Source: Candidatus Latescibacterota bacterium (lineage in GTDB: Bacteria; Latescibacterota; UBA2968). From it: a stretch of DNA of 64,000 nucleotides. The notes beneath the pieces are model-generated. The model had not been told where the DNA came from. It saw only the letters and a list, made by a program, of their open reading frames with translations, and did no database searches. The stretch spans positions 832,001-896,000 of the forward strand of contig OZ242320.1 of assembly GCA_965208125.1 (NCBI GenBank). The letters are read 5' to 3'. Both the position numbers and the translations under genes were made by a program. Positions 1-34,064 of the stretch are shown here, piece after piece. How positions within the stretch are numbered: position 1 is the stretch's first letter; the number at the start of each line of letters is the position of its first letter.

Positions 1-455
1 CGATTGATCGGGGCAATCAAGCCACGCACTTTGTGGCTATAATCGTAAAAACCAAGGCCCAAACCCAGATAAGGCGACCACTTGCGGTCGGACATGGTCT
101 CGGCATTTTCCCTGAAAAACCACAGCCAGTTTGAAGCCACGCTATTCCAGATCATCTCTGAATCGGCTTCGGGACTTGGGACCTGCCGATCTTTGTATTC
201 GAACGTGCGCCCGGGAAGATTGGAATTGCGAAACTTCGAGTAGTGATACTCCACCTCTGTGGTCAAACGCGGAGAAATCACATAACTCACATTCAAGCCG
301 AACTTCAAATCACCAGCATACCAGCCGCTCAAAGGACCTGTTGGCTGGTGATAGTTCACCAATCCGCCAATAGCCCACAGATCTGCATCGCGGGCGTCTG
401 CGGAAGATACAGCAAATAAGAAAACCCCGGCGTACAAAGCTAAAAATCTTTTCAA
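1..455 (-). CDS. Exported outer-membrane beta-barrel-like protein (3' end runs off the window; not in ORF track)
   Basis: Manual translation from TTG at 455 with SD AAGGAGG at 461-467: MKRFLALYAGVFLFAVSSADARDADLWAIGGLVNY...KFGLNVSY...SPYLGLGLGFYDY; signal peptide and alternating beta-strand pattern, open to position 1. Confidence 0.7.
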   Translation of the reverse strand, partial: MKRFLALYAGVFLFAVSSADARDADLWAIGGLVNYHQPTGPLSGWYAGDLKFGLNVSYVISPRLTTEVEYHYSKFRNSNLPGRTFEYKDRQVPSPEADSEMIWNSVASNWLWFFRENAETMSDRKWSPYLGLGLGFYDYSHKVRGLIAPIN

Positions 456-821
456 AAGTGCCTCCTTGGGTTTGGGGTGAGCAAAAAAGAGGGGATAGTA
501 TAATGCCTAATAATTGGCAAGACAAGCGTTTTTTAAAGCACACAACAAGGTTAATCAAGCTTCAAAAAAAGCATTCAAAACCATGGCAAAAATCGAGAAT
601 CTTTTGAGTCTTTTTGTACGGAATTACATATATTTCATTTTAAAACAATAATTTATGGAAATTACAAATTCCAAAAACTTATGAAATATAACGCGAAAAA
701 TAAGATTCTCTAAATCGTCATATTAAACGTAAACAAATAGAAATAAAAGAGTTAAAACAACCTTGTCAACGAAAAGTTTGTTAAAGTTTGTAACAGGGCA
801 ATTATTTTTAATTTATAGGAC

Positions 822-1814
822 TTACATATTCAAAATTCGATCGATCTCTGCCGCATTCAATTTTCTTTCAAAACGCGGACCGTATTTGGCGACAACGCGC
901 GAGGAAACATAAGTCGCGAGCCTCGCGGCCTGAGCCGCGTCATACCCCCGGGTCACAGCAAACAAATACGCCCCGGCAAACGAATCGCCCGCGCCATTGG
1001 TATCCACAGCATCTACCACAAAACCCGGCGCATGCAACGCATCACCACCGTCGCAAACCCGGGCACCGTCAGCACCATACGTCACAACCAAACCACCTAC
1101 GCGATGGCGCAACGCACCAAAAACCTCTTCTGTTGTCTCGGCACCGGTAAATATCCTGCCCTCATCCTCATTGCAAAACAGCATATCCACACCTGCATCG
1201 ACCAATGCTGTCATCCTATCCTTAAAAGCAGCCACAATAGACGGATCGCTCAGGGTAAGCGCGACCTTTGTCCCGCGCTCCTGCGCCACCTTTTGCGCCA
1301 CCTGTGCCGCTTCGAAGCCATCGTCTGCCGCAATCAAATAACCCTCGATATAAATATACTGGCTATCGGCAATCACAGCATCCTCAACCTGCGCCACACC
1401 AAACGTACTCGTAATCCCCAAAAATGTATTCATCGTGCGATCCGCATCCTCCGTAATCATCACCAGACACTTGCCCGTAACCCCTTCCCCGCGATGTGAC
1501 GGATTGCACGCCACCCCCGCAGCACTGAGATCGCGAAGATAAAACGCGCCATCTGCATCCTCAGCCACCTTACATCCGTAATAGCCCTGTCCACCACAAT
1601 TGGCCAACGCGATCATCGTATTGGCTGCCGAACCGCCCGACGAGCGCGCCATCTCCTTCCCGCCCAAAGCATCGATCAACGCGCGCTGGCGATCTCCGTC
1701 AATCAGCGTCATCACACCCTTGTCAATCCCCATCGCCTGAAAAAATGACGGATCAACCTGAAACTGAATATCCACCAGCGCATTGCCCAGCCCATACACA
1801 TCGTATTGACGCAT
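822..1814 (-). CDS. PfkB-family carbohydrate/adenosine kinase
   Basis: GNALVD, SGGSAANT and DTNGAGDSFAG PfkB signatures. Confidence 0.9.
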   Translation of the reverse strand: MRQYDVYGLGNALVDIQFQVDPSFFQAMGIDKGVMTLIDGDRQRALIDALGGKEMARSSGGSAANTMIALANCGGQGYYGCKVAEDADGAFYLRDLSAAGVACNPSHRGEGVTGKCLVMITEDADRTMNTFLGITSTFGVAQVEDAVIADSQYIYIEGYLIAADDGFEAAQVAQKVAQERGTKVALTLSDPSIVAAFKDRMTALVDAGVDMLFCNEDEGRIFTGAETTEEVFGALRHRVGGLVVTYGADGARVCDGGDALHAPGFVVDAVDTNGAGDSFAGAYLFAVTRGYDAAQAARLATYVSSRVVAKYGPRFERKLNAAEIDRILNM

Positions 1815-1912
1815 GACTTCTCCTCTCTCAATGTAATACCCACCTCAATCAAAAATTAAAATTAAAAACTGATATTACGCAATACTCAAGTACAGAGCGG
1901 CACAATTCACAT

Positions 1913-3220
1913 TCATGGATGCAATCTGTTGGGGGTGCGGGACAAAAAGGTCGTCTCGCGCACAGAGGGCAAGTCGAGCATAACCATGAGCAAACGCGAC
2001 AGGCCAAAACCAAATCCCCCGTGCGGAGGACATCCGTACTTAAAAAAATCGAGATAAAACTGGATAACCTCTAAATCCAGCCCCTTCTCTCTCGCCTGCG
2101 CCCTCAGGACATCGGGACGGTGTTCGCGTTGCGCGCCTGTGGTAATTTCCACACCACGATAGAGAAGGTCAAAACTCCTGGTCAAATCAGGATATTCTGG
2201 ATGACGCATGTGGTAAAATGGCCGCACAGACACCGGGTAATCTATCACAAAAACATAATCGCATCCCCGGGTTTTGCGGATATATTCACCTATCAGACGC
2301 TCGCCCTTTGGATCGAGATCGCCTTCCCGCTCTGGCGCGTGGCCCTGTTCAGACAACACTGCCAATGCTTCGGCCATCGTAATCCGCGGAAAAGGCAACG
2401 CTGGCACCGCGAGTTCAACACCGTAATTTTCGGCAATAGCGTCACCGTGTCTTTCTCGCACTGTATAAATGACATGTTGTAGCCATTGTTCTTCAAATGC
2501 CATCACATCCTCGTGACTATCAATCCATGCGATCTCGACATCCACACTCGTAAACTCTGTCGTATGGCGCGAAGTAAATGAGGGATCGGCGCGAAAAACG
2601 GGTGCAATCTCAAACACGCGATCAAAACCTGACGCCATCGCCATCTGTTTGTAAAACTGAGGCGATTGCGCCAGATAAGCTGTGGAATTGAAATACGGCA
2701 GCGCAAACAATTCAGCTCCCGATTCACTGGCTGTGCCCATCAGTTTGGGAGAGTGTATCTCGATAAAATGATTCCGCATCCAGTACTCGCGCATCGCCAT
2801 TTCAACAGTGGTCTGTATCTCAAAAATCAACCGATTGCGCGGAACGCGAAGATCGAGATGCCGCCAATCCAGCCGATGGTCAATACCCGATGCATTTTCG
2901 GAAAACGGATCCAGAGGCAACGGCGATTCAGCTGCATTGACAACACTCAGTTCTGCAAGCTGAATCTCAACACCACCCAGGCGAACACCTGTATTTTCGA
3001 CAACGCGTCCGCTTATGCATATCGCCGATTCTCGCGTAAGAGCAGAAACCCGCTCTGCCAACGCCCCTGTCTTTTCTTGAACGACCTGTACACTTCCCGT
3101 GCGATTTCTCAAAATGAGAAACTGAACATACTTCTGATCGCGCAGGGCATGCACCCATCCGTGAAGCGTAACGGTTTGGCCGATATATTTGGACAGTTCA
3201 GATATTGCTATGTATTTCAT
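1913..3220 (-). CDS. aspS: Archaeal/eukaryal-type aspartate--tRNA ligase, probably non-discriminating (Asp/Asn)
   Basis: 435 aa, no GAD insertion; GWVHALRD, YLAQSPQFYKQ, FRAD..RH, GAQREH, PPHGGFGFGLSR; start moved to ATG 3220 (SD AGGAG just upstream). Confidence 0.9.
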   Translation of the reverse strand: MKYIAISELSKYIGQTVTLHGWVHALRDQKYVQFLILRNRTGSVQVVQEKTGALAERVSALTRESAICISGRVVENTGVRLGGVEIQLAELSVVNAAESPLPLDPFSENASGIDHRLDWRHLDLRVPRNRLIFEIQTTVEMAMREYWMRNHFIEIHSPKLMGTASESGAELFALPYFNSTAYLAQSPQFYKQMAMASGFDRVFEIAPVFRADPSFTSRHTTEFTSVDVEIAWIDSHEDVMAFEEQWLQHVIYTVRERHGDAIAENYGVELAVPALPFPRITMAEALAVLSEQGHAPEREGDLDPKGERLIGEYIRKTRGCDYVFVIDYPVSVRPFYHMRHPEYPDLTRSFDLLYRGVEITTGAQREHRPDVLRAQAREKGLDLEVIQFYLDFFKYGCPPHGGFGFGLSRLLMVMLDLPSVRETTFLSRTPNRLHP

Positions 3221-14541: not shown

Positions 14542-17400
14542 ATGCGCACATTGTGTATCATTTTTCTCGTACTGTGGAGTACTTGCTCAGTCATAGCTCA
14601 GGATATGGGTAGCTTGACTGGAAAAGTGGAAGATGAGACGGGAGAAGCATTATTCGCGGCCAATATCACAGTCAAAGGACCGGCCATTGAGGGCGTAAGG
14701 GGCGCAATCACCAACGACCAGGGCAACTATCGCATCGACCGCTTGCCGCCGGGGACTTACGAAATCACCATCAGTTATATCGGCTATGAAACCATCGCCG
14801 CAACCGGCGTAGAAATCCGCGCTGGCGAAAGTATAACGCGAGACTTTACGCTGACCGCTGTCGTCCTCATCGGTCAGCAAGTCGTCGTATCGGCATCGCG
14901 CAAACAGGAAAAAGCCCTGGACGCACCCGCTTCAATAGCAACGATCGAAGCATCTGAAATCAGAGATCGGGGCGTCTTGTCACCGACTGAGCATATCAAG
15001 ACCCTGCCCGGTGTTGACTTTTCCAAAACGGGCATCTCACAAAGCAACGTGGTGGTTCGCGGATTCAACAATGTATTTTCTGGCGCACTGCTCACACTCG
15101 TTGACAATCGCATTGCCCGCGTCCCTTCCCTGCGTTTCAATGCCTTTGATATGATCCCCGTTACCGGTGACGACATTGAGCGTATTGAAGTGGTATTAGG
15201 ACCCGGATCTGCGCTTTACGGTCCCAACACCTCCAGTGGCGTCATGCACATTATCACCCGCTCGCCATTTGGATCGGAAGGCAATACAATTTCCATATCT
15301 GGCGGGCAGCGCAGTGTGAGAAAATTATCACTGCGCCACGCCAGCAGCCTCAACGACAAGATCGGGATCAAAATTTCGGTTGGGCACAGTTCAGCCCATG
15401 ACTGGGAGTACATCGATCCTCTGGAAGTGGAATCACGCGGTTTTAATCCACGCGATTACAACGCAAAAAAGACATTGGGAGAACTGAGACTCGATTTTCG
15501 ACCAACAGATGACCTGACAATCATAGGATCAACGGGTTATACAAAAACAAGCGGTATTGAATTGACGGGTTTGGGCGCGGGTCAGGCAAAAGACTGGACC
15601 TATAATTTTTATCAAGGCCGCCTGCTCTATCGCGAGTGGTTTGCACAGGTCTTCTTCAACGCCAGTGATGCAGGTCAAACGAGAATGATCGCAGCCGACG
15701 ACCCAATTGTAGATAATTCATATTTGATGGTTCTGCAATTGCAACACAATGCCAATTTGGGACAGAAACAACACTTTGCTTATGGTGCTGATGTACTGCG
15801 AACCCGACCCAAGACAGGGGGCACAATAAATGGCATGCATGAAGACATTGATAACATCGATGAATACGGGGTCTATTTGCAAAGTGAAACCAGCCTGAGT
15901 GATCAAATCGAGCTGGTATTGGCCGGGCGCATAGACAAGCACAGCCATGTTGAAGATCCATTTTTCTCACCCCGCGCAGCGCTGGTCATTAAACCCAGGC
16001 CACTCAACACCCTGCGATTGACGTATAACCGCGCATTTAGCACGCCTTCGACCACCAACTTATTTTTGGACCGGATCGGCCTCCCCGATCCCTTTGGGTT
16101 CGGGGCATTGCAACCGGCATTGGGATTTAGTCCAGCAATTGACGTTCGCGCACAGGGCACCGCCGGTACCGGATTCACATTTCGCAGAGACGACAATGGC
16201 CTACCCATGTATCGGACCTCCTTTGCGCCCATAGCGGGCTTGTCAAAAGATCACTACTTCTCTCTGCACGATCCGCAAGGTACCAATTTGATGTGGGGCG
16301 CTGCCAGATCAATAATAATGAGTATCCTTTTGGCGGAACTGGAACCTCTCGCAACAGGGCTTTTCGTAGATCGGCTTGGGCTACCACAAGATCAAGCGGC
16401 TGCGGTAGCCGCACAACTGGTTGCAGACTTCCCCGGGATTATCCCAGAACAACTGCCGGGCTTGCAAAATACGGCCGGCACACTGAATACGGCAACGGCG
16501 AGTTTTGATCCCGAGCCCAGCCTCGCCAATGCAGTGGCAGACATAAACAAAATCGAATCGACCATCTCAGAAACCTTTGAAGTGGGATACAAAGGCGTCA
16601 TCAATAACAAACTCATTCTCGCAGCCGATGCCTACCTGAGCAGAAAAAGAAATTTCACCAGCCCGTTGCGGATTGTAACACCCAGTGTGTTTCTCGCAGC
16701 CGGTCCCTTGAGCGAAGCTCTGGAAAACGGAATTACCGAGAACTTGAGAGACCCCGCCAATGCAAGTCTCGCAATTGCCATCGGCCTTTTAGATCAACTC
16801 AACCTGCCGGATTTGGGCCTGGTTGGCAATGGCAATGGCACGGGCATAGATGAATTGACGCAGTTATTTGTATCCAACGCCGCGGGAATTCCCTTTGGTA
16901 CCATGTCTGCCGAACAGGCATCAGACCCCACTGCAGTCATGGTCGCATATCGCAATTTCGGTCGCATAACGCTCTACGGTGCCGACCTGTCGTTTGCGTA
17001 TTATCCAAACGAAATGTGGACTTTTACCGGCAATTACTCCTATGTCAGCGATGATTGGTTCCCCAATTTAGACAACATCGGCGACATTGCCCTCAATGCC
17101 CCCCGGCACAAATTTAACATCGGAGTCGATTGCCAACTGCCCAATATGCCACTCACCATTCGCGGAAAATTGAGCTATCGCGGTAGTTTTCCAATGCAAT
17201 CGGGTGTATATGTAGGCGATGTAGATGCTTACACTGTTTTGGACCTGAATGCCGCATATCAGTTGCCACTCTCAAATGACCGCTTCAAGATCACCTGGAA
17301 TGTGGAAGCCAGCAACGTGTTAAACCAGGAATATCGATCATTTATCGGTGCGCCATTTATTGGACGCCTGGTCTTAACGGGCCTGAATATTCGATTCTAA
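14542..17400 (+). CDS. TonB-dependent receptor with N-terminal carboxypeptidase-regulatory-like domain (copy 1)
   Basis: Signal peptide, VVVSASR, DIERIEVVLGPGSALYG plug motif, C-terminal Phe. Confidence 0.92.
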   Translation: MRTLCIIFLVLWSTCSVIAQDMGSLTGKVEDETGEALFAANITVKGPAIEGVRGAITNDQGNYRIDRLPPGTYEITISYIGYETIAATGVEIRAGESITRDFTLTAVVLIGQQVVVSASRKQEKALDAPASIATIEASEIRDRGVLSPTEHIKTLPGVDFSKTGISQSNVVVRGFNNVFSGALLTLVDNRIARVPSLRFNAFDMIPVTGDDIERIEVVLGPGSALYGPNTSSGVMHIITRSPFGSEGNTISISGGQRSVRKLSLRHASSLNDKIGIKISVGHSSAHDWEYIDPLEVESRGFNPRDYNAKKTLGELRLDFRPTDDLTIIGSTGYTKTSGIELTGLGAGQAKDWTYNFYQGRLLYREWFAQVFFNASDAGQTRMIAADDPIVDNSYLMVLQLQHNANLGQKQHFAYGADVLRTRPKTGGTINGMHEDIDNIDEYGVYLQSETSLSDQIELVLAGRIDKHSHVEDPFFSPRAALVIKPRPLNTLRLTYNRAFSTPSTTNLFLDRIGLPDPFGFGALQPALGFSPAIDVRAQGTAGTGFTFRRDDNGLPMYRTSFAPIAGLSKDHYFSLHDPQGTNLMWGAARSIIMSILLAELEPLATGLFVDRLGLPQDQAAAVAAQLVADFPGIIPEQLPGLQNTAGTLNTATASFDPEPSLANAVADINKIESTISETFEVGYKGVINNKLILAADAYLSRKRNFTSPLRIVTPSVFLAAGPLSEALENGITENLRDPANASLAIAIGLLDQLNLPDLGLVGNGNGTGIDELTQLFVSNAAGIPFGTMSAEQASDPTAVMVAYRNFGRITLYGADLSFAYYPNEMWTFTGNYSYVSDDWFPNLDNIGDIALNAPRHKFNIGVDCQLPNMPLTIRGKLSYRGSFPMQSGVYVGDVDAYTVLDLNAAYQLPLSNDRFKITWNVEASNVLNQEYRSFIGAPFIGRLVLTGLNIRF

Positions 17401-17455
17401 AGCTGCCCCTCTCCCATCTTAAAAAACTCCAGATCATTGCGATAAGGAGGATTTG

Positions 17456-20317
17456 ATGCGCTTATTATATATCCTTGCTTTCGTACTGTGGAATGCTTAC
17501 TCGGTCATAGCTCAGGATTTCGGCGGCTTGACTGGAAAAGTGAAAACAGAGGACGGAGTAATTTTATTCGGTGCCAATATCATAGTCAAAGGACCGGCCA
17601 TTGAAGGCACCCGGGGTGCAATCACCAATGACCAGGGAAACTATCGCATCGACCGCTTGCCGCCGGGCATTTACGAAATCACCATCAGTCATATCGGCTA
17701 TGAAACGGTGGTTGTATCGAATGTAGAAATCCGCGCTGGCGCAAGTATGACGCGAGATTTCAAATTGACCGCCGTAGTCCTCATTGGTCAACAGGTCGTG
17801 GTATCGGCATCGCGCAAACAGGAGAAAGCCCTGGACGCGCCTGCCTCAATTGCAACAGTCGAAGCGTCTGAAATCAGAAATCGAGAAGTCTTGACAATGA
17901 GTGAATATGTCAAGACTCTGCCCGGCGTTGACTATGCTCAAACAGGCATATCGCAAGGCAGCATGGTCGTTCGCGGATTCAACAAGGTATTTTCTGGCGC
18001 ATTGCTCACACTCGTTGACAACCGCATTGCCCGCATCCCTTCCCTGCGCCTCAATGCCTATGATTTGATCCCCCTTACCAGTGACGACATTGAGCGCATC
18101 GAAATCGTTCTGGGACCCGGATCCGCACTTTACGGTCCCAACAGTGCCAATGGCGTGATGCACATTATCACCCGCTCGCCATTTGGATCGGAAGGCAATA
18201 CAATTTCCATATCTGGCGGGCAGCGCAGTGTGAGAAAATTATCGCTGCGACACGCCAGCAGCCTCAACGACAAGATCGGGATCAAAATTTCGGGTGGATA
18301 TGTTGCAACCCATGACTGGGAATATGTCGATCCCCTGGAAGTGGAATCGCGCGGTTTTAATCCACGCGATTATAGCACAGAAAGGACAAGTGGAGAGTTC
18401 AGGCTCGACTTTCGACCAACAGATGACCTGACACTGATAGGATCGGCAGGCTATTCAAAAATGAGCGGCCTTCAACAGACGGATTTGGGTGCGGGCCAGG
18501 CAAAAGACTGGACCTATAATTTTTATCAAGGCCGTCTGCTCTATCGCGGGTGGTTTGCACAAATCTTCTACAACACCAGTAATGCGGGCGACACGGAACT
18601 GATCACAGCCGGCGACCCAATTGTAGATAATTCACATTTGATGGTCTTGCAATTGCAACACAATGCCAGTTTGGGCAAAAAACAACACTTCGCTTATGGT
18701 GCCGATGTACTGCTCACCCGACCCAAAACACAGGGCACAGTACACGGCATGCATGAAGACAATGACGACATCGATGAATACGGGATCTACCTGCAAAGCG
18801 AAACCAACCTGAGCGATCAAATCGATCTGATAATGGCCGGGCGTATCGACAAACACAGCCATATCGAAGATCTGTTTTTCTCACCCCGCGCAGCACTGAT
18901 CATTAAACCCAGCCCGTTCAACACCCTGCGATTGACATATAACCGAGCATTTAGCACGCCCTCAACCCCAGACTTATTTGTAGATCGAATCGGCGTCCCC
19001 GACGTCTTTATGCTGGGGACAAGTTTCAGCCCGATATTGGAATTTAGTCCAGCAATTGACCTTCGCGCACAGGGCACTGCCGGTACCGGATTCACATTTC
19101 GCAGAGACGACAATGGGCTACCCATGTTTCGGACGCCCTTCGCGCCTATAGCGGACCTGTCAAAAGATCACTACTTCTCTCTGCACGATCCCCAGGCCAC
19201 CAATTTGATGTGGCGTGCTGCCAGAGAGGCAATACTGAACGGCTTTCTATCTGAACTGGAACCTCTTGCAACAGAGCTTATCGCAGGCGGGCTTGGGCTA
19301 CCACCAGATCAAGCCGTTGCGCTGGTCGAAAAACTCGTCGAGATCTTTCCCGGAACTATCCCAGAGCAACTGCCGGGCTTGCAAAATACGGCTGCGATAC
19401 TGAATGCAGAAACGCAGGGTTTCGATCCCATACCCGACCTCGCCAATGCAGTGACAGACATAGAAAAACTCGGACCAACCATCACAGAAACCTTTGAATT
19501 GGGATACAAAGGCGTCATCAAAAACAAACTGATCCTGGCAGCCGATGTTTATCAAACCAGAATCAAAAATTTTGTCAGCCCGTTGCGGATTGAAACGCCC
19601 AACGTATTTCTCGCACCCGGTCCCTTAAGCGAAGCCCTGACAGACGCGCTTACCGAGAACCTGAAAGATCCTGCCAATGCAAGCCTCGCAATTGCCCTTA
19701 TTTTTTTAGATCAGCTCAACGAGCCAGAGTTGGGGTTGGTTGGCAATGGCAATGGAACAGGCGTGGATGAATTGACGCAGTTATTCGTAGCCAACGCCGC
19801 GCTGATCCCCTTTGGTACGATAGTACCCGAACAGGCAGCAGACCCCAATGCGGTGATCGTCGCACCTCGCAATTTTGGCAACATAACGCTCTACGGTGCT
19901 GACCTATCGCTTGCGTATTATCCAAACGAAATATGGGCTTTTACCGGCAATTATTCCTACGTCAGCAAGGATATGTTTCGCAATTTAGACAACATCGGCG
20001 ACATAGCCCTCAATGCTCCCAGACACAAATTTAATATCGGTATCGATTGCCAATTGCCCAATATACCGCTCACGATCCGGGGAAAATTTCGCTACCGCGA
20101 TGGCTTTCCAATGCAATCGGGTATATATGTCGGCAATGTAGATGCTCATACTGTTTTGGATTTGAATTTGACCTATCAGTTGCCACTTTCAAATGATCGC
20201 TTCAGCACCTCCTTAAATTTGAATGCCAGCAATTTGCTAAACCAGGAATACCGATCATTTGTCGGTTCGCCCTGGATCGGACGCCTGATTACAAGCAGCT
20301 TGCATGTTCGGTTCTAA
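17456..20317 (+). CDS. TonB-dependent receptor (copy 2, tandem paralogue)
   Basis: Colinear and highly similar to 14542-17400; SD AAGGAGG. Confidence 0.92.
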   Translation: MRLLYILAFVLWNAYSVIAQDFGGLTGKVKTEDGVILFGANIIVKGPAIEGTRGAITNDQGNYRIDRLPPGIYEITISHIGYETVVVSNVEIRAGASMTRDFKLTAVVLIGQQVVVSASRKQEKALDAPASIATVEASEIRNREVLTMSEYVKTLPGVDYAQTGISQGSMVVRGFNKVFSGALLTLVDNRIARIPSLRLNAYDLIPLTSDDIERIEIVLGPGSALYGPNSANGVMHIITRSPFGSEGNTISISGGQRSVRKLSLRHASSLNDKIGIKISGGYVATHDWEYVDPLEVESRGFNPRDYSTERTSGEFRLDFRPTDDLTLIGSAGYSKMSGLQQTDLGAGQAKDWTYNFYQGRLLYRGWFAQIFYNTSNAGDTELITAGDPIVDNSHLMVLQLQHNASLGKKQHFAYGADVLLTRPKTQGTVHGMHEDNDDIDEYGIYLQSETNLSDQIDLIMAGRIDKHSHIEDLFFSPRAALIIKPSPFNTLRLTYNRAFSTPSTPDLFVDRIGVPDVFMLGTSFSPILEFSPAIDLRAQGTAGTGFTFRRDDNGLPMFRTPFAPIADLSKDHYFSLHDPQATNLMWRAAREAILNGFLSELEPLATELIAGGLGLPPDQAVALVEKLVEIFPGTIPEQLPGLQNTAAILNAETQGFDPIPDLANAVTDIEKLGPTITETFELGYKGVIKNKLILAADVYQTRIKNFVSPLRIETPNVFLAPGPLSEALTDALTENLKDPANASLAIALIFLDQLNEPELGLVGNGNGTGVDELTQLFVANAALIPFGTIVPEQAADPNAVIVAPRNFGNITLYGADLSLAYYPNEIWAFTGNYSYVSKDMFRNLDNIGDIALNAPRHKFNIGIDCQLPNIPLTIRGKFRYRDGFPMQSGIYVGNVDAHTVLDLNLTYQLPLSNDRFSTSLNLNASNLLNQEYRSFVGSPWIGRLITSSLHVRF

Positions 20318-25355: not shown

Positions 25356-28300
25356 CTATCCGCCAACCGATTTGCCAAAGACACTCACAAGCAGAAGAAA
25401 ATCGGGAAAGTCAACAGCACCGTTCCCATTGATATCGTATTGGGCCTGGGACGATCCAAAGGCACTCACAAACAGGAGAAAATCAGTAAATTCGACTACG
25501 CCATTGCCGTCAAAATCCGATTTGGCCTCCACAGAAAGCGGCTGGACAACGCCAGAAATCGTCAGCGTATGCTTTGCGCGATCCGGATCATTACTCGAAA
25601 TGGTGATAAGCCCCGAAAATGTGCCTTCCATGGGTTTGGGAAACGCAATCATAACCGTCGCCGAACTATCCGGAGGCAACGTAAACATCACAGGATCAAA
25701 TGTCAAACCCGACACATCGCTCTCAATACCCGTAATCTCCAACGGCGCAGTACCCGTATTCGTAATCGTAAAAGTCTGCTGGGCCGTCTTTTCGGCATCA
25801 ATAGTACCGAAATCAATTGCGGATTCTCCCACAACCAGCACCGGCGCAGGTGCCGCCTGCACAATCACAGACACAGATAATGTCTGGGTTGCACGATCCG
25901 GATCATTACTCGAAATGGTGATAAGCCCCGAAAACGTACCCTCCACAGAACTCGGAAACGTCACTGTCACTGTGCGCGAACTATCCGGAGATAGTGTAAA
26001 CATCACAGGATCAAACGTCAGACCCGACACATCGCTCTCGATACCCGTAATCTCAAGGGGAGCCGTACCCGTATTCGTCACCGTAATCGTCTGCTGAACC
26101 GGTTGAGCAAACGCAACTGTGCCAAAGTCAATTGCTGTTTGCTGAACAGTGATAGCCGGAACAGGTCGCGGTTGAACAATCACAGAAATTGACAGCGTAT
26201 GCTTTGCGCGATCCGGATCATTACTCGAAATAGTGATATTGCCTGAAAACGTGCCCTCCACAGAACTCGGAAACGTCACTGTCACCGTCTGTGAACCATT
26301 AGGTTCCAGCGTGAACATCGTATTATCAAACGTCAAACCCGACACATCACTCTCAATACCCGTAATCTCAAGGGAGGCCGTGCCCATATTCGTAATTGTA
26401 ATCGTCTGCTGAACCGGTTGAGCAAACGCAACTGTACCAAAATCAATTGACGTTTCCTGAACACTAATCGCTGGCACAGGTGCCGCCTGTACGATCACAG
26501 ACACAGATAATGTCTGCTTTGCGCGATCCGGATCATTACTCGAAATGGTGATAAGCCCCGAAAACGTACCCTCCACAGAACTCGGAAACGTCACTGTCAC
26601 TGTGCGCGAACTATCCGGAGATAGTGTAAACATCGCAGGATCAAAGGTTAGACCCGACACATCGCTCTCAATACCTGTAATCTCCAAATCCGCGGTACCT
26701 GTATTTGTAATCGTAATCGTCTGCTGAACCTGTTGCTCAAACGCAACAGTGCCGAAATTAACTTCCTCTTGTGGCACAGAGATCGCCGGAACAGGGGGCG
26801 GTTGAACGATCACAGAAATTTTCAGCCTATGCTTCGCTTGATCCGGATCATTACTCGAAATAGTGATATTACCTGAAAACGTGCCCTCCACAGAACTCGG
26901 AAATGTCACCGTCACCATCTGTGAACCATTAGGTGCCAGCGTGAACGTTGTAGTATCAAACGTCAGCCCCGACACATCGCTCTCTATACCTGTTATCTCT
27001 AAATCCGCGGTACCCGTATTTGTAATCGTAATCGTCTGCTGAACCGATTGGGCAAATGCAACAGTACCAAAGTCAATTTTCGTTTCCTGAACACTGATCG
27101 CTGGCACAGGTCGTGGCTGAACGATCACAGAAATTTTCAGCCTATGCTTCGCTTGATCCGGATCATTGCTCGAAATAGTGATAAACCCCGAAAACGTGCC
27201 CTCCACAGAACTCGGAAATGTAATCGTAACTGTCTGTGAACCATTAGGTGCCAGCGTGAATATCGTCGTATCAAACGTCAGCCCCGACACATCGCTCTCT
27301 ATACCCGTAATCTCAAGAGGCGCTGTTCCAGTATTCGTGATCGTAATCGTCTCTTGAACCGGTTGGGCAAACGCAACAGTACCAAAGTCAATCGCTGTTT
27401 GTTGTACCGAGATCGCTGGCACAGGTGCCGCCTGCACAATCACAGAAATCGATAGCGTATGCCTTGCGCGATCCGGATCATTGCTCAAAATATTGATACT
27501 ACCCGAAAACGTACCCTCTGTCGAATTCGGAAACGTCACTGTAACCGTGCGTGATCCATTGGGTTCCAGCGTGAACATCGTAGTATCAAATGTCAATCCC
27601 GACACATCGCTCTCAATACCCGTTATCTCCAACGAAGCTGTGCCCGTATTTGTAATCGTAATCGTCTCTTGAATCGGTTGACCTACCTCAACAGTACCGA
27701 AATCAACTGCCGTTTGTTGCACACTGATCGCAGGCACAGGAGGCGGCTGCACAATCACAGACACGGATAATGTCTGTGTTGCACGTTCCAGATCGTTACT
27801 CGAAATAGTGATATTCCCTGAAAACGTGCCTTCCGTCGAACTCGGAAACGTCACCGTCACCGTGCGCGAACCGCCAGGTTCCAGTGTGAACGTAGAAGGT
27901 TCAAACGTCAATCCCGACACATCGCTCTCAATACCCGTTATCTCAAGAGGCGCTGTTCCCGTATTTTGGACTGTGAAAGTCGCTTGAACCGATTGTGCAA
28001 ACGCAACAGTACCGAAATCAATCACTGTTTCCTGAATAGAGATCGCTGGCACAGGTCGCGGTTGGACAATACCAGAAACGGATAAGGTCTGTGTTCCACG
28101 TTCCAGATCGTTACTCAAAATAGTGATATTTCCCGAAAACGTACCCTCTGTCGAACTCGGAAACGTCACCGTCACCGTCCGCGAACTATTGGGTTCCAAT
28201 GTAAACATCGTAGTATCAAACGTCAGACCAGACACATCGCTCTCTATACCTGTAATCTCCAACGTTGCAGTACCCGTATTCGTAATCGTAATCGTATCCT

Positions 28301-30416
28301 GAACCGGTTGGGCAAACGCAACAGTACCAAAATCAATCGCCGTTTGCTGAACACTGATCGCTGGCACAGGTCGCGGTTGAACGATCACGAACACAGATAA
28401 TATCTGGGTTCCACTCTTCGGATCATTACTCGAAATAGTGATATTACCTGAAAACGTGCCCTCCGTCGAACTCGGAAATGTCACCGTCACCATCTGTGAA
28501 CCATTAGGTGCCAGTGTAAACATCGTAGCATCAAACGTCAGCCCCGACACATCACTCTCTATACCTGTAATCTCAAGAGGCGCTGTTCCAGTATTCCTGA
28601 TCGTAATCGTATCCTGAACCGGTTGTGCAAACTCAACAGTACCAAAATCAATTGCAGTCTCCCGCACAGAGATCGCAGGCACAGGTTTCGGTTGAACGGT
28701 CACAGAAACAGATAATGTCTGTGTTCCGCGTTCCAGATCATTACTCGAAATAGTGATATTGCCTGAAAACGTGCCCTCCGTCGAACTCGGAAACGTCACT
28801 GTCACCGTCTGTGAACCATTAGGTGCCAGCGTGAATATCGTATTATCAAACGTCAGGCCCGACACATCACTCTCTATACCCGTAATCTCAAGAGGCGCTG
28901 TTCCAGTATTCCTGATCGTAATCGTCTGTTGAACTGGTTGTGCAAATGCAACTGTACCAAAATCAATCGCCGTTTGCCGCACAGAGATCGCTGGTGCAGG
29001 CGGCGGTTGGACGATTACATAAACGGATACAGGGTACTCCGCATGATCTGGATCATTACTCAAAATATTAATAAGTCCTGAAAATGTACCTTCTGTCGAA
29101 CTCGGAAATGTCACTGTCACCGTGCGCGATCCATTGGGTTCCAATGTGAACATCGTAGTATCAAATGTCAAACCCGACACATCGCTCTCTATACCTGTAA
29201 TCTCAAGAGGACCTGTACCCATGTTCGTAATCGTAATCGTTTGTTCACCCGTTTGACCTGCCTCAATAGTACCAAAATTAACTCCTTCTTGTGGCACAGA
29301 GATCGCCGGTACAGGGGGCGGTTGAACGGTCACGGACACAGATAATGTCTGTGTTCCGCGTTCCAGATCATTACTCGAAATAGTGATATTACCTGAAAAC
29401 GTGCCCTCCGTCGAACTCGGAAACGTCACCGTCACCATCTGTGAACCGCCAGGTTCCAGCGTGAACATCGTAGTATCAAATGTCAAACCCGACACATCGC
29501 TCTCAATACCTGTTATCTCCAAATCCGCGGTACCTGTATTTGTAATCGTAATCGTCCGCTGAACCTGTTGTGCAAACTCAACAGTGCCGAAATCAACTGC
29601 TGTTTGCGGTACCGAGATCGCTGGCGCAGGGGGCGGTTGGACTATGACAGACACGGATAATGTGCTTGTTGCACTATTTGGGTCATTACTCGAAATCGTG
29701 ATATTACCCGAAAACGTGCCCTCTGTTGAACTCGGAAACGTCACTGTCACTGTCTGTGAACCGTTGGGAGCCAGTGTGAACGTCGTAGTATCAAACGTCA
29801 AACCCGATACATCACTCTCAATACCTGTAATCTCCAAATCCGCAGTACCCGTATTCGTAATCGTAATCGTCTCCTGACCTGTTTGACCCGTGTCAATAGT
29901 ACCGAAATCAACTCTCTCCTGCACTGAAATCGCTGGTGCAGGTGATGGTATTTGCGCCAACAGTTCATCAACCTTGGCTTCCGCAGTAGAAATGACGTTT
30001 GAAATAAAGCCTCCGGACCATTCTACATTCCCATCAGTACCAACCACAACGAGGCGATCATACGTGGTCGTAGCATCACTCCTACTCGCACTTAGAAGCA
30101 TGGGAAAAGTGATGCCTCCATTCGCGCGAAAACCCTCAACTTGAGCACGACTACCATTCCAGAGATCGAGACCGAGCATGGCAACATTGGGGTTATCGTT
30201 ATACTTTTGCCATAATGTTTCGAGCGACCTACCTGCCGCTCTACAGGTCGGTCAGCCATACCCGATGACTGCAAGTATGAGCACCTGGCCGCGATAGTCA
30301 GAAGCACTATATGTACTGCCGTCGAGGCCCGTTAAAGAAAAATTAACCGTTTGTGCAAAAGCAGACCCAGCGAGCAAGAACAGCATCATTGGGATAGATA
30401 AAAGATATTTGCGCAT
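25356..30416 (-). CDS. 1686-aa secreted selenoprotein: redoxin (TlpA/AhpC-TSA-like, UxxC) + 14 Ig-like (ASH/choice-of-anchor-D-like) repeats + dockerin-like tail
   Basis: ATG 30416 (SD GAGGA) is in frame with the 1607-aa ORF; signal peptide ...AGSAFA, FSLTGLDGSTYSASDYRGQVLILAVIGYG-TGA-PTC; TGA at 30252-30254 followed by a SECIS; C-terminal DFDGNGVVEFTDF..DINGNGAVDFPDF. Confidence 0.85.
25546..29945 (-). repeat. 14 tandem 315-bp (105-aa) coding repeats
   Basis: LEITGIESDVSGLTF occurs 14 times with a 315-nt period. Confidence 0.95.
30222..30241 (-). promoter_or_regulatory. Bacterial SECIS element
   Basis: GAGCGGC-AGGUAG-GUCGCUC hairpin at +14..+33 from the U of UGA; GCAGGU at +19..+24 as in E. 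coli fdhF SECIS (G23, U24). Confidence 0.8.
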
Positions 30417-30450
30417 GGTATTTATCCTCATATATTGGTTAAGTTAAGGA

Positions 30451-30474
30451 TCGGGAAAAGGATTTCCCTCCTAC
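30451..30474. repeat. GTAGGAG-type REP half element
   Basis: TCGGGAAAAGGATTTCCCTCCTAC, related to the right end of the element at 43064-43148. Confidence 0.55.
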
Positions 30475-30566
30475 GGGTCCCTCAATAATGTATTACCTGT
30501 ACTAAAAGTATCAACGCTTCAATTTAACAGAAGTTTCTCCACAGGTCAATTCACAAGGAGCGAGCG

Positions 30567-31406
30567 ATGGGCATCCTCACCGAACAAAAAAAAGCGTTCT
30601 TTGACACCTTTGGGTTTCTCGCATTTCCGGGATTATTGTCAGATTGCATCGACGAAATTATCGAAGCATTTGAAACAATATGGACACAACGGGGAGGTGG
30701 ACACAACGGGCAACCGCACGACGGCAAACGCCGATCGTGTATCGTGCCATTTATCGACCAGCACGAACGCCTGTGCGCCCTCTTAGATGATCCGCGGATA
30801 AAAGAAATCCTGATCGGATTACTGGGTGAAAATTTCAATTACATGGGATCAGACGGAAATTATTATGCCGGAGACACGCAATGGCATTCGGATGGCTGGG
30901 GCAAGGAAATTCGATTTGTAAAAATTGCCCTGTACCTGGATCACTTAACGCGCGACACGGGTTGTTTGCGCGTCATTCCGGGAAGTCACCATCTCAAAGA
31001 TCAATATGCAAATAATGTCGAAAACACCGTCCGAAATTCTCAGGAGCAATGGGATATTCACGGATCAGATGTCCCTGCACTACCACTGGAAACCAATCCG
31101 GGCGACGTCGTCCTATTCAACCACAACTTAAAACACGCAGCCTTTGGCGGCAGTCCACGTCGGCGCATGTTCACCATCAACTGCAGCGAACGCTTCCCCG
31201 AAGACGAAGAACACATTGAACTGTTAAAAACACAGATTGCCGCACGCGCGCGGTTCTGGAACGATCGCGCTTACGGAAAAATCATGGTCGCAACCGCTGG
31301 ACCCGAACGACAAAAACATCTATCGCAAATCATGGCGCACGACGATCACCTCGCCGAACTCTCCGCACGCGCAAGAGAAGAAATGCCCGAGCCATCGCGT
31401 GGATAA
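30567..31406 (+). CDS. Phytanoyl-CoA dioxygenase (PhyH) family Fe(II)/2OG dioxygenase
   Basis: FFDTFGFL, WHSD, GCLRVIPGSH, PGDVVLFN..LKHA. Confidence 0.88.
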   Translation: MGILTEQKKAFFDTFGFLAFPGLLSDCIDEIIEAFETIWTQRGGGHNGQPHDGKRRSCIVPFIDQHERLCALLDDPRIKEILIGLLGENFNYMGSDGNYYAGDTQWHSDGWGKEIRFVKIALYLDHLTRDTGCLRVIPGSHHLKDQYANNVENTVRNSQEQWDIHGSDVPALPLETNPGDVVLFNHNLKHAAFGGSPRRRMFTINCSERFPEDEEHIELLKTQIAARARFWNDRAYGKIMVATAGPERQKHLSQIMAHDDHLAELSARAREEMPEPSRG

Positions 31407-31542: not shown

Positions 31543-32772
31543 ATGAGCAAACGCGATGCAGAGCAAATTCAAAAAGTATTGGCTGGCGACCAGGCTGCTT
31601 ACGAACCGCTGGTCAATGCGTATCAAGGGCGCATCTTTGCCTTTGTAGCTGGTCGAATCCGCAACTTTTCCGCAACTGAAGACATCGTCCAAAATGCGTT
31701 TGTGGAGGCATACATGCACCTCAAGTCTCTAAAATCGCCCGAAAAATTCTCAGGTTGGCTGCGGGGAATAGCACTCAATTTGTCAAACAAATGGCTTCAA
31801 CAAAAGCGTCCAGTCGTCTCAATCGACGACACATCGCGGGATATAACGCCTGAAGCATCGGAAGTTCCATTGCCGGACTTACCCGACGAAGCACTGGAAA
31901 AAACCGAAACAAAAGAAGTCGTTATAGCCGCCGTTGATGCATTGCCAGACATTTATCGAGAATCAGTACTGCTCCACTACATGGAAGGCATGACCTATCC
32001 CGAAATCGCCGCATTTCTCGACATCCCCGAAAGCACAGTAACCGGTCGCCTTCAGGTTGCGCGCAATCGCTTGCGCGACGAATTGATGCCGCTGGTAGAA
32101 GACACACTCCGCGAAAAACGTCCGACACCTCAACTGACGCGCAAAATAATAGCCGCATTACCCCCGCTATGGTACGCAGTACCAACGCAGGCGAGCCTGC
32201 TCGCCAAACTGAAAGGAACAGGCATGATAAAAATAATGGGTATCATCGGTGCAGGAATCGCGGGAACGGGATTGTACTTTGGTGGGATTTCGGCAGTCTT
32301 GAATTTAGAACAAGAAAACACCGAGCCATCTCAGGTACCCCAAATACAACTCGAATTGGAAAACCCCGCTCAAAATGAGCAGTCCGTTCCTGAGAAAACT
32401 GACGAGACAGAGGCCGTAGAATCTTTTTTACAAAAGGTCCAATCCGATTCCAATACAAGTGGCGACCCACAAACAGAAAAACTGGACTTCAGAATGGAAA
32501 GTACGCCACAAGATTCACTGGTAAAAATTGTGTACTGGCTTCCGAAAACGATTTATTCAGACTCCGTCTTTGTAGAACTCAATTGCTATAATGTTCAGGG
32601 CCTGATAGTAGCCAGGCCGGTGAATAAAATGCACAATCCCGGTTCTTATACTGTCTTCTTGTCTAAACAGGGACTTCCCGACGGAACATACTTCGTGCAA
32701 TTAAAAGCAAACCGATCACCAAAAAATGCCCAGGTGAGGAAATTGAATCTAATTTGGACAGATAGAAAGTGA
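31543..32772 (+). CDS. ECF sigma factor with fused TM segment and C-terminal Ig-like (T9SS-CTD/FlgD-like) domain
   Basis: EDIVQNAFVEAY and YPEIAAFLDIPESTVTGRLQVAR; hydrophobic IMGIIGAGIAGTGLYFGGISAVL; C-terminal YNVQG..PGSY..LPDGTYFVQL..RKL. Confidence 0.8.
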   Translation: MSKRDAEQIQKVLAGDQAAYEPLVNAYQGRIFAFVAGRIRNFSATEDIVQNAFVEAYMHLKSLKSPEKFSGWLRGIALNLSNKWLQQKRPVVSIDDTSRDITPEASEVPLPDLPDEALEKTETKEVVIAAVDALPDIYRESVLLHYMEGMTYPEIAAFLDIPESTVTGRLQVARNRLRDELMPLVEDTLREKRPTPQLTRKIIAALPPLWYAVPTQASLLAKLKGTGMIKIMGIIGAGIAGTGLYFGGISAVLNLEQENTEPSQVPQIQLELENPAQNEQSVPEKTDETEAVESFLQKVQSDSNTSGDPQTEKLDFRMESTPQDSLVKIVYWLPKTIYSDSVFVELNCYNVQGLIVARPVNKMHNPGSYTVFLSKQGLPDGTYFVQLKANRSPKNAQVRKLNLIWTDRK

Positions 32773-34064
32773 GGCTCAACATGTATTTCAACAAGTGCAA
32801 ACTGGTAGCAAGTCTGGCGATATGTCTAATTGCATATTCCCCGTGTCTTGCACAACAGCCAACCCATTCTAAAGAAGAAATGAAGCGGTTTCGCCAATTT
32901 GCGTCCGGATACCTCCCCAAGACCCCAGATCAGTATTGGGAGGGCATTCTGGGACTGGAGCAACTGCTTGCAGATTATCCCAATACCTTTTTGAAAGGCG
33001 ACATCTCCATCACCCTGTTGACTTATTACCAACAGGTCACCGATGATCCACATCTGTTGATAGAACTATGCGACAAAATGCTCGCATTGCGAATGCACAC
33101 CAATGGCGCTTATGAAACGGCTGCTCGGGCACTCGTAGATAAGAAAGTTCGGTCTGATAAAACGCTTCTATATGCACAAAACGCATTAAAAGAAGCATTG
33201 CAGAACCAGGAAAAATGGGAAAATTACGGTAAAAGAGAACTAATCTGCCGGGATCTATTGGCGCGTGCTCATCAACTCTTTGGACAACACGACCGTGCTG
33301 TCGGAGAAATAAAGACCGCGATTCGCGGTTGGCAAACCCGAGAAGATTTAGGCGACCTGGAACTGGCATCTCGGCAGGCGTCAGTAGATAGAGCAAAGAC
33401 CCACTTACTTCGGATTTATATCGACCAAAAAGCCTGGAAAACGGCTTATGAACTCGCCTCAGAATTATTGCTAACCTCAGTCATACGCCAGGATATAGCA
33501 GAACTGTGGAGCCAGGCTTATGTTGGCAAATTCGGTTCAGGTGCAGGGATGAGCAAAGCCTATGCTTCCTTAAAATCCGAGCGGAAGAAAAAAATCATCC
33601 AAAGCGTCGAAAAAGAACGCATTTTACGCTCAGCACCGGCCTTTGAAGTCCAAAAGCTGGACGGTGAAAAAATCACTTCAGAGGACTTAAAAGGCAAAGC
33701 TGTGGTACTAACGTTTTGGGCGGGATGGTGCAGCCCGTGCATTGAAGAACTGCCCTATCTCCAAAACCTCAAAGCGCAATTTCTCAAGCAAAATGTCGAA
33801 TTTTTAGCGGTAAATATCGACCAGGATGGCTCAATGCGCCGGGATATGGTCGCCAGCTTTCGGTACCAGAGCGCACCGCTCTTAACCTTTGCACTGGGCG
33901 ATCTGGAAATGCGAAAAGCGTTTGGCTCCGCCGAGATTCCCTATACATGTATCATCGATCAGAACGGACAGATTCGATATGAACGCAAAGGATTAGGTGC
34001 AGATTTCAGCGTGGCAATGGCGCATCAATTGGAGTGGATCATCGGAATGAACGAAGCACAGTGA
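32769..34064 (+). CDS. Exported TPR-like + TlpA/redoxin thiol-disulfide oxidoreductase
   Basis: Signal peptide, helical N-domain, APAFEVQKLDGEKITSEDLKGKAVVLTFWAGWCSPC; GTGA overlap with the sigma gene. Confidence 0.85.
   Translation: MRLNMYFNKCKLVASLAICLIAYSPCLAQQPTHSKEEMKRFRQFASGYLPKTPDQYWEGILGLEQLLADYPNTFLKGDISITLLTYYQQVTDDPHLLIELCDKMLALRMHTNGAYETAARALVDKKVRSDKTLLYAQNALKEALQNQEKWENYGKRELICRDLLARAHQLFGQHDRAVGEIKTAIRGWQTREDLGDLELASRQASVDRAKTHLLRIYIDQKAWKTAYELASELLLTSVIRQDIAELWSQAYVGKFGSGAGMSKAYASLKSERKKKIIQSVEKERILRSAPAFEVQKLDGEKITSEDLKGKAVVLTFWAGWCSPCIEELPYLQNLKAQFLKQNVEFLAVNIDQDGSMRRDMVASFRYQSAPLLTFALGDLEMRKAFGSAEIPYTCIIDQNGQIRYERKGLGADFSVAMAHQLEWIIGMNEAQ

Follow-up and report, generated by a model that had tools for sequence, protein, structure and literature searches.

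Bacterial selenoproteins have been catalogued mostly as single-domain redox proteins. The ResA/TlpA-type enzymes, which belong to the thioredoxin-fold oxidoreductases with their typical cis-proline loop, are tethered to the membrane and are normally recharged there by CcdA or DsbD, while the dockerin-cohesin assemblies of Gram-positive cellulosomes are held by S-layer homology (SLH) or sortase anchors. Here we describe a gene of a Candidatus Latescibacterota bacterium (metagenome-assembled genome, assembly GCA_965208125.1) that lies in a 64,000-nucleotide (nt) stretch of contig OZ242320.1 (positions 832,001 to 896,000, hereafter the window), within a single contig of 5.75 Mb. The gene is located on the minus strand and is very probably a mis-annotated gene for one secreted selenoprotein of 1686 residues, made up of a UxxC redoxin head (U, selenocysteine), an immunoglobulin (Ig)-like stalk and a dockerin-like tail. 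Its features are collected in Table 1, and coordinates refer to the window unless prefixed with G or L.

The minus-strand open reading frame at 25356..30179 comprises 1607 amino acids (aa). A preliminary description of the window had proposed that this frame extends a further 79 codons upstream to an ATG preceded by a Shine-Dalgarno sequence and followed by a signal peptide, with a TGA at codon 55 as the only interruption (GYG-TGA-PTC, the first-Cys position of a CxxC motif). Translation bears out the extension, which reaches the ATG at 30416-30414 and brings the total to 1686 aa, and no stop other than this TGA interrupts it. An alternative in-frame ATG lies at 30431, five codons further upstream. 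The leader pattern of residues 1-21, as judged by eye, is kept in homologues. U55 and C58 are the only selenocysteine or cysteine residues of the whole protein. Read across the UGA, the predicted product is one polypeptide with the architecture given above.

The genome holds a complete set of selenocysteine genes. selA (494 bits) is adjoined by selB (396 bits), and selD (365 bits), which has an in-frame TGA of its own, stands directly beside a gene for tRNA-Sec (anticodon tca). All three protein models scored above their curated cut-offs. TGA terminates 422 of the 1082 open frames of at least 500 codons in this genome and is therefore an ordinary stop elsewhere, which excludes a genetic code that reassigns TGA.

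The in-frame TGA recurs throughout the family. Two paralogues in the same genome carry it at the target's column, with heads that are 66% (GYSUPSC, 1118 aa) and 32% (GYNUGTC, 436 aa) identical to that of the target. Among the genomes of the same order, 39 of 41 contain matches, and nearly all of these matches, down to 28% identity, hold exactly one TGA. A TGA that recurs in two paralogues and in nearly all homologues of 39 of the 41 genomes is beyond chance. More specifically, the codon at the U55 column is TGA in 45 and TGT in one of the 46 distinct family genes extracted from the fetched loci. The TGA is kept at this one column across identities of 28-71%, with coding conservation on both of its flanks (alignment A2), and in that alignment no column other than those of U and C is invariant. 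The TGT (Cys) gene is the middle one of three family genes in tandem (L066, G036:C1:5119300-5123500), the outer two of which carry TGA; it is still followed by a weak hairpin, which fits a recent change from selenocysteine to cysteine. At the U55 column, distant homologues from other phyla (Anaerolineae, Chromatiaceae and others) show WCPPC. The position is thus occupied by TGA or by a cysteine codon, in agreement with its proposed identity as the first Cys of a CxxC motif. In a profile search of 151 genomes of the phylum, matches with the TGA came from both families of the order and from two more families of the same class; the matches in other classes of the phylum are mostly without the stop and hence Cys forms.

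Contigs from public sequencing runs were compared with the region around the TGA. A near-identical contig, possibly the source of the assembly, has 0 differences over 29900-30500. A relative's 472-nt contig, from a run labelled as a sponge metagenome, covers 29900-30316, and another contig, of 199 nt and from an RNA library, spans 30137-30330 and thereby crosses the TGA. The relatives' contigs have no listed difference at 30252-30254, with 18 differences not being among those listed. The TGA, for which the preliminary description had recommended confirmation in reads, is in this way upheld by contigs. As these are contigs and not raw reads, the one from the RNA library does not show transcription of the gene. 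Gaps in coverage of the region (in X4, X9 and X10) carry no weight, and small-share rows among the runs were left out of the evidence. Taken together, none of the three findings that the preliminary description had named as refuting (a lack of selABCD, TGG or TGC in the reads, a non-Cys residue in homologues) was obtained.

Directly after the UGA, the coding sequence contains a hairpin resembling a selenocysteine insertion sequence (SECIS). The bacterial SECIS (bSECIS) model, as given in the Fig. 2 legend of PMC13188914, comprises a loop of 3-9 nt on a stem of 4-16 base pairs (bp), a G in the first two loop positions, a distance of 16-37 nt between UGA and loop, and a minimum free energy of -7.5 kcal/mol or lower. 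The target hairpin agrees with all four criteria, with a UGA spacing of 17 nt and an energy of -11.7 kcal/mol that is equalled by one of 643 other 28-nt windows of the gene. All 45 TGA genes agree with the first three criteria, having a G within the first two loop positions at 16-22 nt past the UGA, and 34 of them agree with all four (30-nt window). The stems vary by subfamily (GAGCCGCG/CGCGACUC, GGGCGG/CCGUCC and AGGGGCGGG/CCCGCCUUU) while the hairpin is kept, and in the sister families it is again found at that position, with the stems CGCGG/CCGCG and UCUCGC/GAGAG. In one fixed register, 69.8% of the cells pair, compared with 38-51% when the partner is slid. A single-structure fold of the 73 nt around the UGA (RNAfold) preferred another pairing that includes the UGA itself (z = -1.0); local windows for each gene were used for the hairpins in its place. 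An Rfam scan of 30100-30500 gave a single chance-level match below threshold (Tombus_3_IV, 18 against 33 bits), and no curated bacterial SECIS family was found in Rfam for testing. At the level of the genome sequence, the UGA of codon 55 qualifies as a selenocysteine codon that is conserved and accompanied by a SECIS, in an organism with the full selenocysteine machinery.

The head matches the Pfam families AhpC-TSA (36.3 bits, cut-off 26) and Redoxin (34.5 bits, cut-off 26.6) over residues 24-119. An AlphaFold2 model of the head, based on a 41-sequence alignment, has a predicted local distance difference test score (pLDDT) of 87 and a predicted template modelling score (pTM) of 0.83, and shows the strands and helices in thioredoxin-fold order. 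U is located at model residue 34, just ahead of the helix formed by residues 35-51, and the U..C pair has the placement of a CxxC-type pair at the N-terminus of helix 1. The AhpC-TSA/TlpA-like redoxin named in the preliminary description, which had proposed a structure prediction, is therefore confirmed by both the family models and the predicted fold. Foldseek ranked ResA structures first (E 3e-11, template modelling (TM) scores 0.74-0.82), followed by other thiol-disulfide oxidoreductases, with GPX4 and peroxiredoxin (Prx) entries lower, and a profile search of the PDB sequences returned 2ls5 (6e-24), 3kcm (8e-22), ResA (3e-19) and TlpA (1.7e-11). The NCBIfam ResA model NF002854 scored 30.1 bits against a cut-off of 170, indicating that the head is not a ResA orthologue, and NF041054 (ResA-like WAxxUGC selenoprotein) gave no match to the head at E <= 0.01. 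The peroxiredoxin motif is absent from the alignments, in which neither a Thr three residues nor a Pro seven residues before U is conserved; the local sequence before the selenocysteine is (V/I/F)(I/F/L)G(Y/H/F/W)xU. Alignments and model together place selenocysteine at the first position of UxxC in a predicted ResA/TlpA-like thioredoxin-fold domain.

In the mechanism that we propose, the U55/C58 pair at the distal tip would carry out selenol/thiol-disulfide exchange, that is, disulfide reduction or isomerisation, on extracellular substrates, and would cycle via an intramolecular U55-C58 selenenylsulfide. Selenocysteine in place of cysteine would provide a nucleophile present in deprotonated form at neutral pH and resistant to irreversible over-oxidation, which would suit an extracellular enzyme away from cytoplasmic repair.

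The stalk consists of Ig-like units spaced exactly 105 aa apart, on which Pfam finds 14 stretches each of PF22544 (HYDIN_VesB_CFA65-like Ig, 611 bits) and PF07610 (DUF1573, 584 bits). A single unit scores 70.8 bits against the NCBIfam model NF012200 (choice-of-anchor D, cut-off 45). Tandem Repeats Finder reports a period of 315 with 13.7 copies, and identities among the units of 58-90% in protein and 66-88% in DNA indicate a diverged array, not identical copies. Of the earlier statement of 14 x 105-aa repeats, the count and the exact spacing hold; the number 14 is neither unique nor maximal, given that public relatives have 8-16 units. The units would act as a spacer of variable length. In the tail, a match over cut-off to Dockerin_1 (25.2 bits, cut-off 22.9) and a match to EF-hand_1 (27.5 bits), together with two DxNGNG..DF segments, agree with the double EF-hand/dockerin-like ending described earlier, and this tail is conserved in 32 family members. 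As a separate observation, the unit at 29331-29645 (minus strand) has a weak match to NF041425, 'OS_HP2 family (seleno)protein' (33 bits, cut-off 100), suggesting that the stalk domain resembles a family with selenoprotein members of its own.

The preliminary description had treated the protein as a singular oddity, a view that has to be abandoned: it belongs to a family that extends across the lineage. The 46 extracted genes contain 0-14 Ig-like units, and nearly all complete ones end in the same dockerin-like tail; across the whole family, including the public relatives, the range is 0-16 units. The target is large without being the largest, as public relatives reach 1817 aa. The head-bearing proteins examined here span 234-1686 aa, with one outlier of 186 aa (in G021) that has no dockerin motif. 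The head is found together with Ig-like stalks, dockerin-like tails, leucine-rich repeat (LRR) regions, a beta-lactamase-fold domain and type IX sorting domains. In the 1118-aa paralogue, the head precedes a segment that looks dockerin-like by eye, seven LRR_8 stretches and a weak Big_9 match, and the C-terminal region, in which an HExxH motif is visible by eye, matches no family. Pfam shows no cohesin, dockerin or peptidase family in the middle and C-terminal parts of this paralogue. The head is thus also carried on proteins without an Ig stalk. Most genomes of the genus have an orthologue of the 436-aa paralogue, in every case with TGA. In sister families of the same class, direct fusions link the selenocysteine head to a type IX sorting domain, in proteins of 280-639 aa, or, in other cases, to a dockerin-like tail. 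A contig scan of genomes found four close Latescibacterota relatives and 13 distant ones, and a scan of metagenome contigs with a single head protein found only 12 distant Cys-type relatives. As judged from these genes, stalk and tail are modular and the gene family is lineage-wide in Latescibacterota.

In public protein data, the target's product is recorded only in its 1607-aa form. Eleven further large relatives, of 979-1817 aa and with 8-16 units, are on record, and all 12 large public proteins begin at the same internal Met (MLGLD...) and contain no Cys. As this Met follows the TGA, all of them are truncated, as the preliminary description had predicted for standard annotation. In the records, the relatives of the small paralogue are proteins of 321-322 aa or, in a few cases, 295 aa, and 'choice-of-anchor D domain-containing protein' is the only source name given for them. 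All 26 matches to the head of the small paralogue, which belong to these 321-322-aa and 295-aa proteins and cover 19-35% of the head, are without the leader and the active site. With leader and active site missing from the records, these surface proteins are currently read as leaderless and of unknown role.

To consider where the protein is displayed, we turn to the anchors encoded in the genome. It contains 56 Dockerin_1 matches, the target's tail among them, and a handful of cohesin matches over cut-off. The cohesin-bearing proteins, two large ones of 1606 and 2154 aa (G000:C1:2266947-2278310) and one of 268 aa, all have leaders and all end in FlgD_ig/Por_Secre_tail, that is, in a type IX sorting domain. 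The 268-aa protein is encoded 1.9 kb downstream of the 1118-aa paralogue, is matched in every one of the 41 related genomes, with identities of 80-97% inside the genus; on its domain content, it is a candidate for a minimal surface socket for dockerin-bearing proteins. A complex prediction that combined its cohesin module (P0031, alignment A4) with the tail (alignment A3) gave a score of 0.05 and a mark of 0.32 and was used neither for nor against docking. SprA is present (641 bits). Two adjacent genes for TonB-dependent receptors (14542-20317, plus strand; about 950 aa each, with an N-terminal CarboxypepD_reg domain) indicate that the organism is probably diderm. The alternation of anchors on one selenocysteine head, a type IX sorting domain in some proteins and a dockerin-like tail in others, constitutes the best indirect evidence for a destination at the cell surface. 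After Sec-dependent export, the protein would be held at the surface by its C-terminal dockerin-like module, with the genome's cohesin proteins that end in type IX sorting domains as its likely docking partners.

The preliminary description had envisaged an extended stalk that carries the head beyond the cell, where it would act on external or host thiols or peroxides. The sister-family fusions to a type IX sorting domain lend the surface location indirect support, while the substrates, any of a host included, are putative. In its broader form, the proposal is a modular display of surface selenoenzymes in one Latescibacterota class, in which a selenocysteine head on dockerin-like/cohesin or direct type IX anchors, with 0-16 Ig-like spacers, would act on disulfides or peroxides of the surroundings, possibly those of a sponge host. 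We put this forward tentatively, as a model that may well need to be replaced.

Two further observations concern the dockerin and cohesin genes. Nine of the 56 Dockerin_1 matches lie within about 47 kb (G000:C1:4775256-4821843), just upstream of the 1118-aa paralogue and the small cohesin gene, a cluster that possibly represents a dockerin gene island. At G000:C1:4796721-4796981 (plus strand), a cohesin match below threshold (20.6 bits) contains one in-frame TGA, and this locus could be another selenocysteine gene or a broken gene.

Several points weigh against a surface-displayed selenoprotein. The signal peptide was called by eye from the translation, and the count of 14 units rests on the assembly sequence. 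Eleven of the 45 hairpins, with energies of -4.8 to -7.4 kcal/mol, miss the limit of -7.5 kcal/mol. Covariation in a single register amounts to three pairs changed on both sides, no more than in shuffles, in a test that is blunted because the registers of the subfamilies differ by 1-3 nt, and the GGU of the loop doubles as the codon for Gly in a conserved AGP motif, which means that a protein constraint could account for part of its conservation. The Dockerin_1 match of the tail is marginal, and the score of the tail against NF041540 (dockerin_GC, 28.2 bits) is just under the cut-off of 29. In the head, no conserved Pro precedes strand 4 in alignment A2 or in the alignment to 3kcm; among the prolines of A2, near-invariance is limited to P42 and P84. 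In the family, residues other than Pro align with the VP of 3kcm, and the best PDB match, 2ls5, is also without Pro there. The cis-Pro loop thus seems to be absent, which makes the catalytic style less certain. Furthermore, no electron donor is obvious for a tip that would stand tens of nanometres away from the membrane. The best PorV-like match in the genome (158 bits) lies under the cut-off of 250, and the target itself is without a type IX sorting domain, which leaves the crossing of the outer membrane by the dockerin-bearing forms unexplained.

Gene callers take the TGA as a true stop, as the 1607-aa record and the internal starts of all 12 large relatives show, and the locus would then either be a pseudogene or consist of a frame for a 54-residue peptide and, after it, an independent 1607-aa gene. 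The thioredoxin fold of the AlphaFold2 model spans the TGA, however, and the 1607-aa form would begin in the middle of a domain and without a leader, yet bear the modules of a surface protein. In addition, the TGA stands at one column in 45 of the 46 genes with coding sequence conserved on both sides, is followed by the SECIS-like hairpin and occurs in a genome with complete selenocysteine machinery. A true stop is extremely improbable and close to refuted. If codon 55 is selenocysteine, the chemistry of the head can still be read in more than one way. A surface peroxidase of the glutathione peroxidase (GPx) or Prx type, in which peroxide would convert the selenol to selenenic acid, C58 would resolve it and external thiols would recycle the enzyme, would be in line with AhpC-TSA as the best Pfam match, with GPX4 structures among the Foldseek matches (TM 0.74-0.75), with a weak GSHPx match (19 bits) in one sister-family member and with the UxxC 'Prx-like thiol:disulfide oxidoreductase' selenoproteins listed under PF00578 in PMC13188914. 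We consider it unlikely, given that the Prx motif PxxxTxxU/C described there is replaced by G-Y/H/F-x before U with no conserved Thr, that ResA/TlpA-like matches outrank Prx and GPx entries in both sequence and structure searches, and that the invariant U..C pair at i and i+3 is the arrangement of a dithiol oxidoreductase. The same fold and CxxC-type spacing speak against the U..C pair being a site for soft metals or metalloids (mercury, copper, arsenic or selenium species) that serves extracellular capture or sensing instead of catalysis. Selenolate-thiolate pairs bind soft metals strongly, and the protein has no other Cys. Metal-binding selenoproteins are also noted in Table 1 of PMC13188914. 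No metal-binding family is found among the family-model matches of the protein, however, and no metal-handling genes among the adjacent ones (pheS/pheT, a PhyH-like gene and an ECF sigma factor gene), so that a metal site is very unlikely.

The location of the protein can be questioned as well. It could be periplasmic and act as a TlpA/ResA-like reductant for envelope proteins, with the Ig-like units and the dockerin-like tail serving periplasmic assembly. The Sec-type leader is the only export signal of the target, the TonB-dependent receptors make a periplasm probable, and the proteins known to be related to the head are located outside the cytoplasm yet bound to the cell. In contrast, type IX sorting domains, which target proteins for passage through the outer membrane, occur in sister-family members as well as in the genome's cohesin proteins. 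Choice-of-anchor D domains take their name from surface proteins, and fourteen Ig-like domains in a row would, from the typical size of such domains, probably exceed the width of the periplasm. These points make a periplasmic location rather improbable, and extracellular thiol-disulfide exchange by a surface-held head is the reading with which we continue.

Table 1. Location of the features of the selenoprotein gene and of associated genes. Strand is given where it was recorded.
Feature	Location	Strand	Remarks
Complete coding sequence	25356..30416	-	1686 codons and TAG stop at 25356-25358; one in-frame TGA, no other stop
Shine-Dalgarno-like GAGGA	30425..30429	-	8 nt upstream of the ATG at 30416; read from the sequence
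Signal-peptide-like N-terminus, residues 1-21 (MRKYLLSIPMMLFLLAGSAFA)	30354..30416	-	cleavage likely at AFA/Q; judged by eye
ResA/TlpA-like thioredoxin-fold redoxin head, residues 22-152	29961..30353	-	Pfam, AlphaFold2, Foldseek, PDB profile
UGA codon 55, read as selenocysteine	30252..30254	-	first position of the U-P-T-C active-site motif, within GYG-U-PTC
Cys58 codon, partner of U55	30243..30245	-	sole Cys of the protein; column invariant in alignment A2
SECIS-like hairpin	30222..30241	-	10-nt spacer after UGA; 7-bp stem GAGCGGC/GUCGCUC; 6-nt loop AGGUAG
Fourteen tandem 105-aa Ig-like units, residues 153-1622	25551..29960	-	choice-of-anchor D / DUF1573 / HYDIN-VesB-CFA65-like
Dockerin-like tail, within residues 1623-1686	25389..25520	-	two DxNGNG..DF calcium-loop-like segments; Pfam
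Paralogue par2, 1118 aa	G000:C1:4826807-4830163	+	same leader; selenocysteine head GYSUPSC
Paralogue par3, 436 aa	G000:C1:640631-641941	+	selenocysteine head GYNUGTC, two Ig-like units, dockerin-like tail
Sister-family gene L131 (G083:C25)	263-2179	+	selenocysteine head (FNUPFC), Beta-lactamase-family domain (217 bits), type IX sorting domain
268-aa cohesin protein	G000:C1:4832074-4832880 and C1:1729284-1730087	+ and -	leader, weak cohesin match, type IX sorting domain; at least two full-length copies
selA and selB, adjacent	G000:C1:61052-64086		profile matches
selD with in-frame TGA	G000:C1:1005357-1006482	-	tRNA-Sec gene about 100 nt downstream

The neighbours of the target gene are pheS/pheT, the PhyH-like gene (30567-31406) and the gene for an extracytoplasmic function (ECF) sigma factor. 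At 31543-34064 on the plus strand, the open reading frame of this 409-aa ECF-type sigma factor overlaps the start of a 431-aa frame (32769-34064) with a C-terminal Cys-type ResA/TlpA-like redoxin, which scores 84.7 bits against the ResA subfamily model and 44.6 bits against NF041054 (cut-off 300), both under the cut-offs. Relative to the selenoprotein gene, the pair of sigma factor and redoxin is located upstream, on the other strand and with transcription pointing away, and the PhyH-like gene separates the two.

UxxC redoxin selenoproteins as such are already catalogued (PMC13188914, Table 1); the modular, surface-anchored architecture seems to be undescribed. A search for literature linking selenocysteine or selenoproteins to Latescibacter, dockerin, type IX secretion or choice-of-anchor gave nothing on this architecture in the portion of the literature covered, with most subscription journals and supplements outside the search. 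The supplements of the selenoproteome surveys cited in PMC13188914, likewise outside the search, may list family members. The words 'secreted' and 'signal peptide' are absent from this 2026 review, and the paper on sponge-Latescibacterota genomes (PMC12993501) makes no mention of selen-, dockerin, cohesin or thioredoxin. If the proposal is true, the family would carry a selenol catalyst on the outside of the cell, mounted on a stalk that changes rapidly in length from one species to the next. No bacterial selenoenzyme would previously have been known to act beyond the outer membrane, and the enzymes would need an extracellular recharging route. This raises the questions of how an extracellular selenoenzyme is recharged, what its substrate is and why its reach is tuned. 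Furthermore, the sizes of selenoproteomes in the phylum are under-counted, by at least three genes in this genome.

Compared with the known UxxC redoxin selenoproteins (by their description in Table 1 of PMC13188914), the target shares selenocysteine as the first residue of UxxC, the AhpC-TSA/TlpA-like fold, a bacterial SECIS in the coding sequence right after the UGA and far commoner Cys homologues. Those selenoproteins are listed as single-domain families, with no mention of leaders, secretion or added modules, whereas here the head is the N-terminal module of larger proteins. With ResA of Bacillus subtilis and TlpA (1su9, 3c71, 1jfu; also 2ls5 of Bacteroides thetaiotaomicron), it has in common the fold, the position of the pair at the start of helix 1 and, by prediction, export; in contrast to them, it has selenocysteine for the first Cys, no conserved Pro at the cis-Pro position and an identity of only 17-24% in the Foldseek matches, and its head would be soluble and displayed far from the membrane. 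NF041054 is, by its model name, a ResA-like selenoprotein family with an active-site selenocysteine as well, but its motif is WAxxUGC and that of the target GYGUPTC. The cellulosome-type dockerin-cohesin system offers the closest likeness for the other end of the protein, with a C-terminal tail of two calcium-loop-like segments, a Dockerin_1 match, and many dockerin genes next to few cohesin proteins. Here, the cargo would be a redox selenoenzyme and not a glycoside hydrolase, and the cohesin proteins, as putative binding partners, end in type IX sorting domains.

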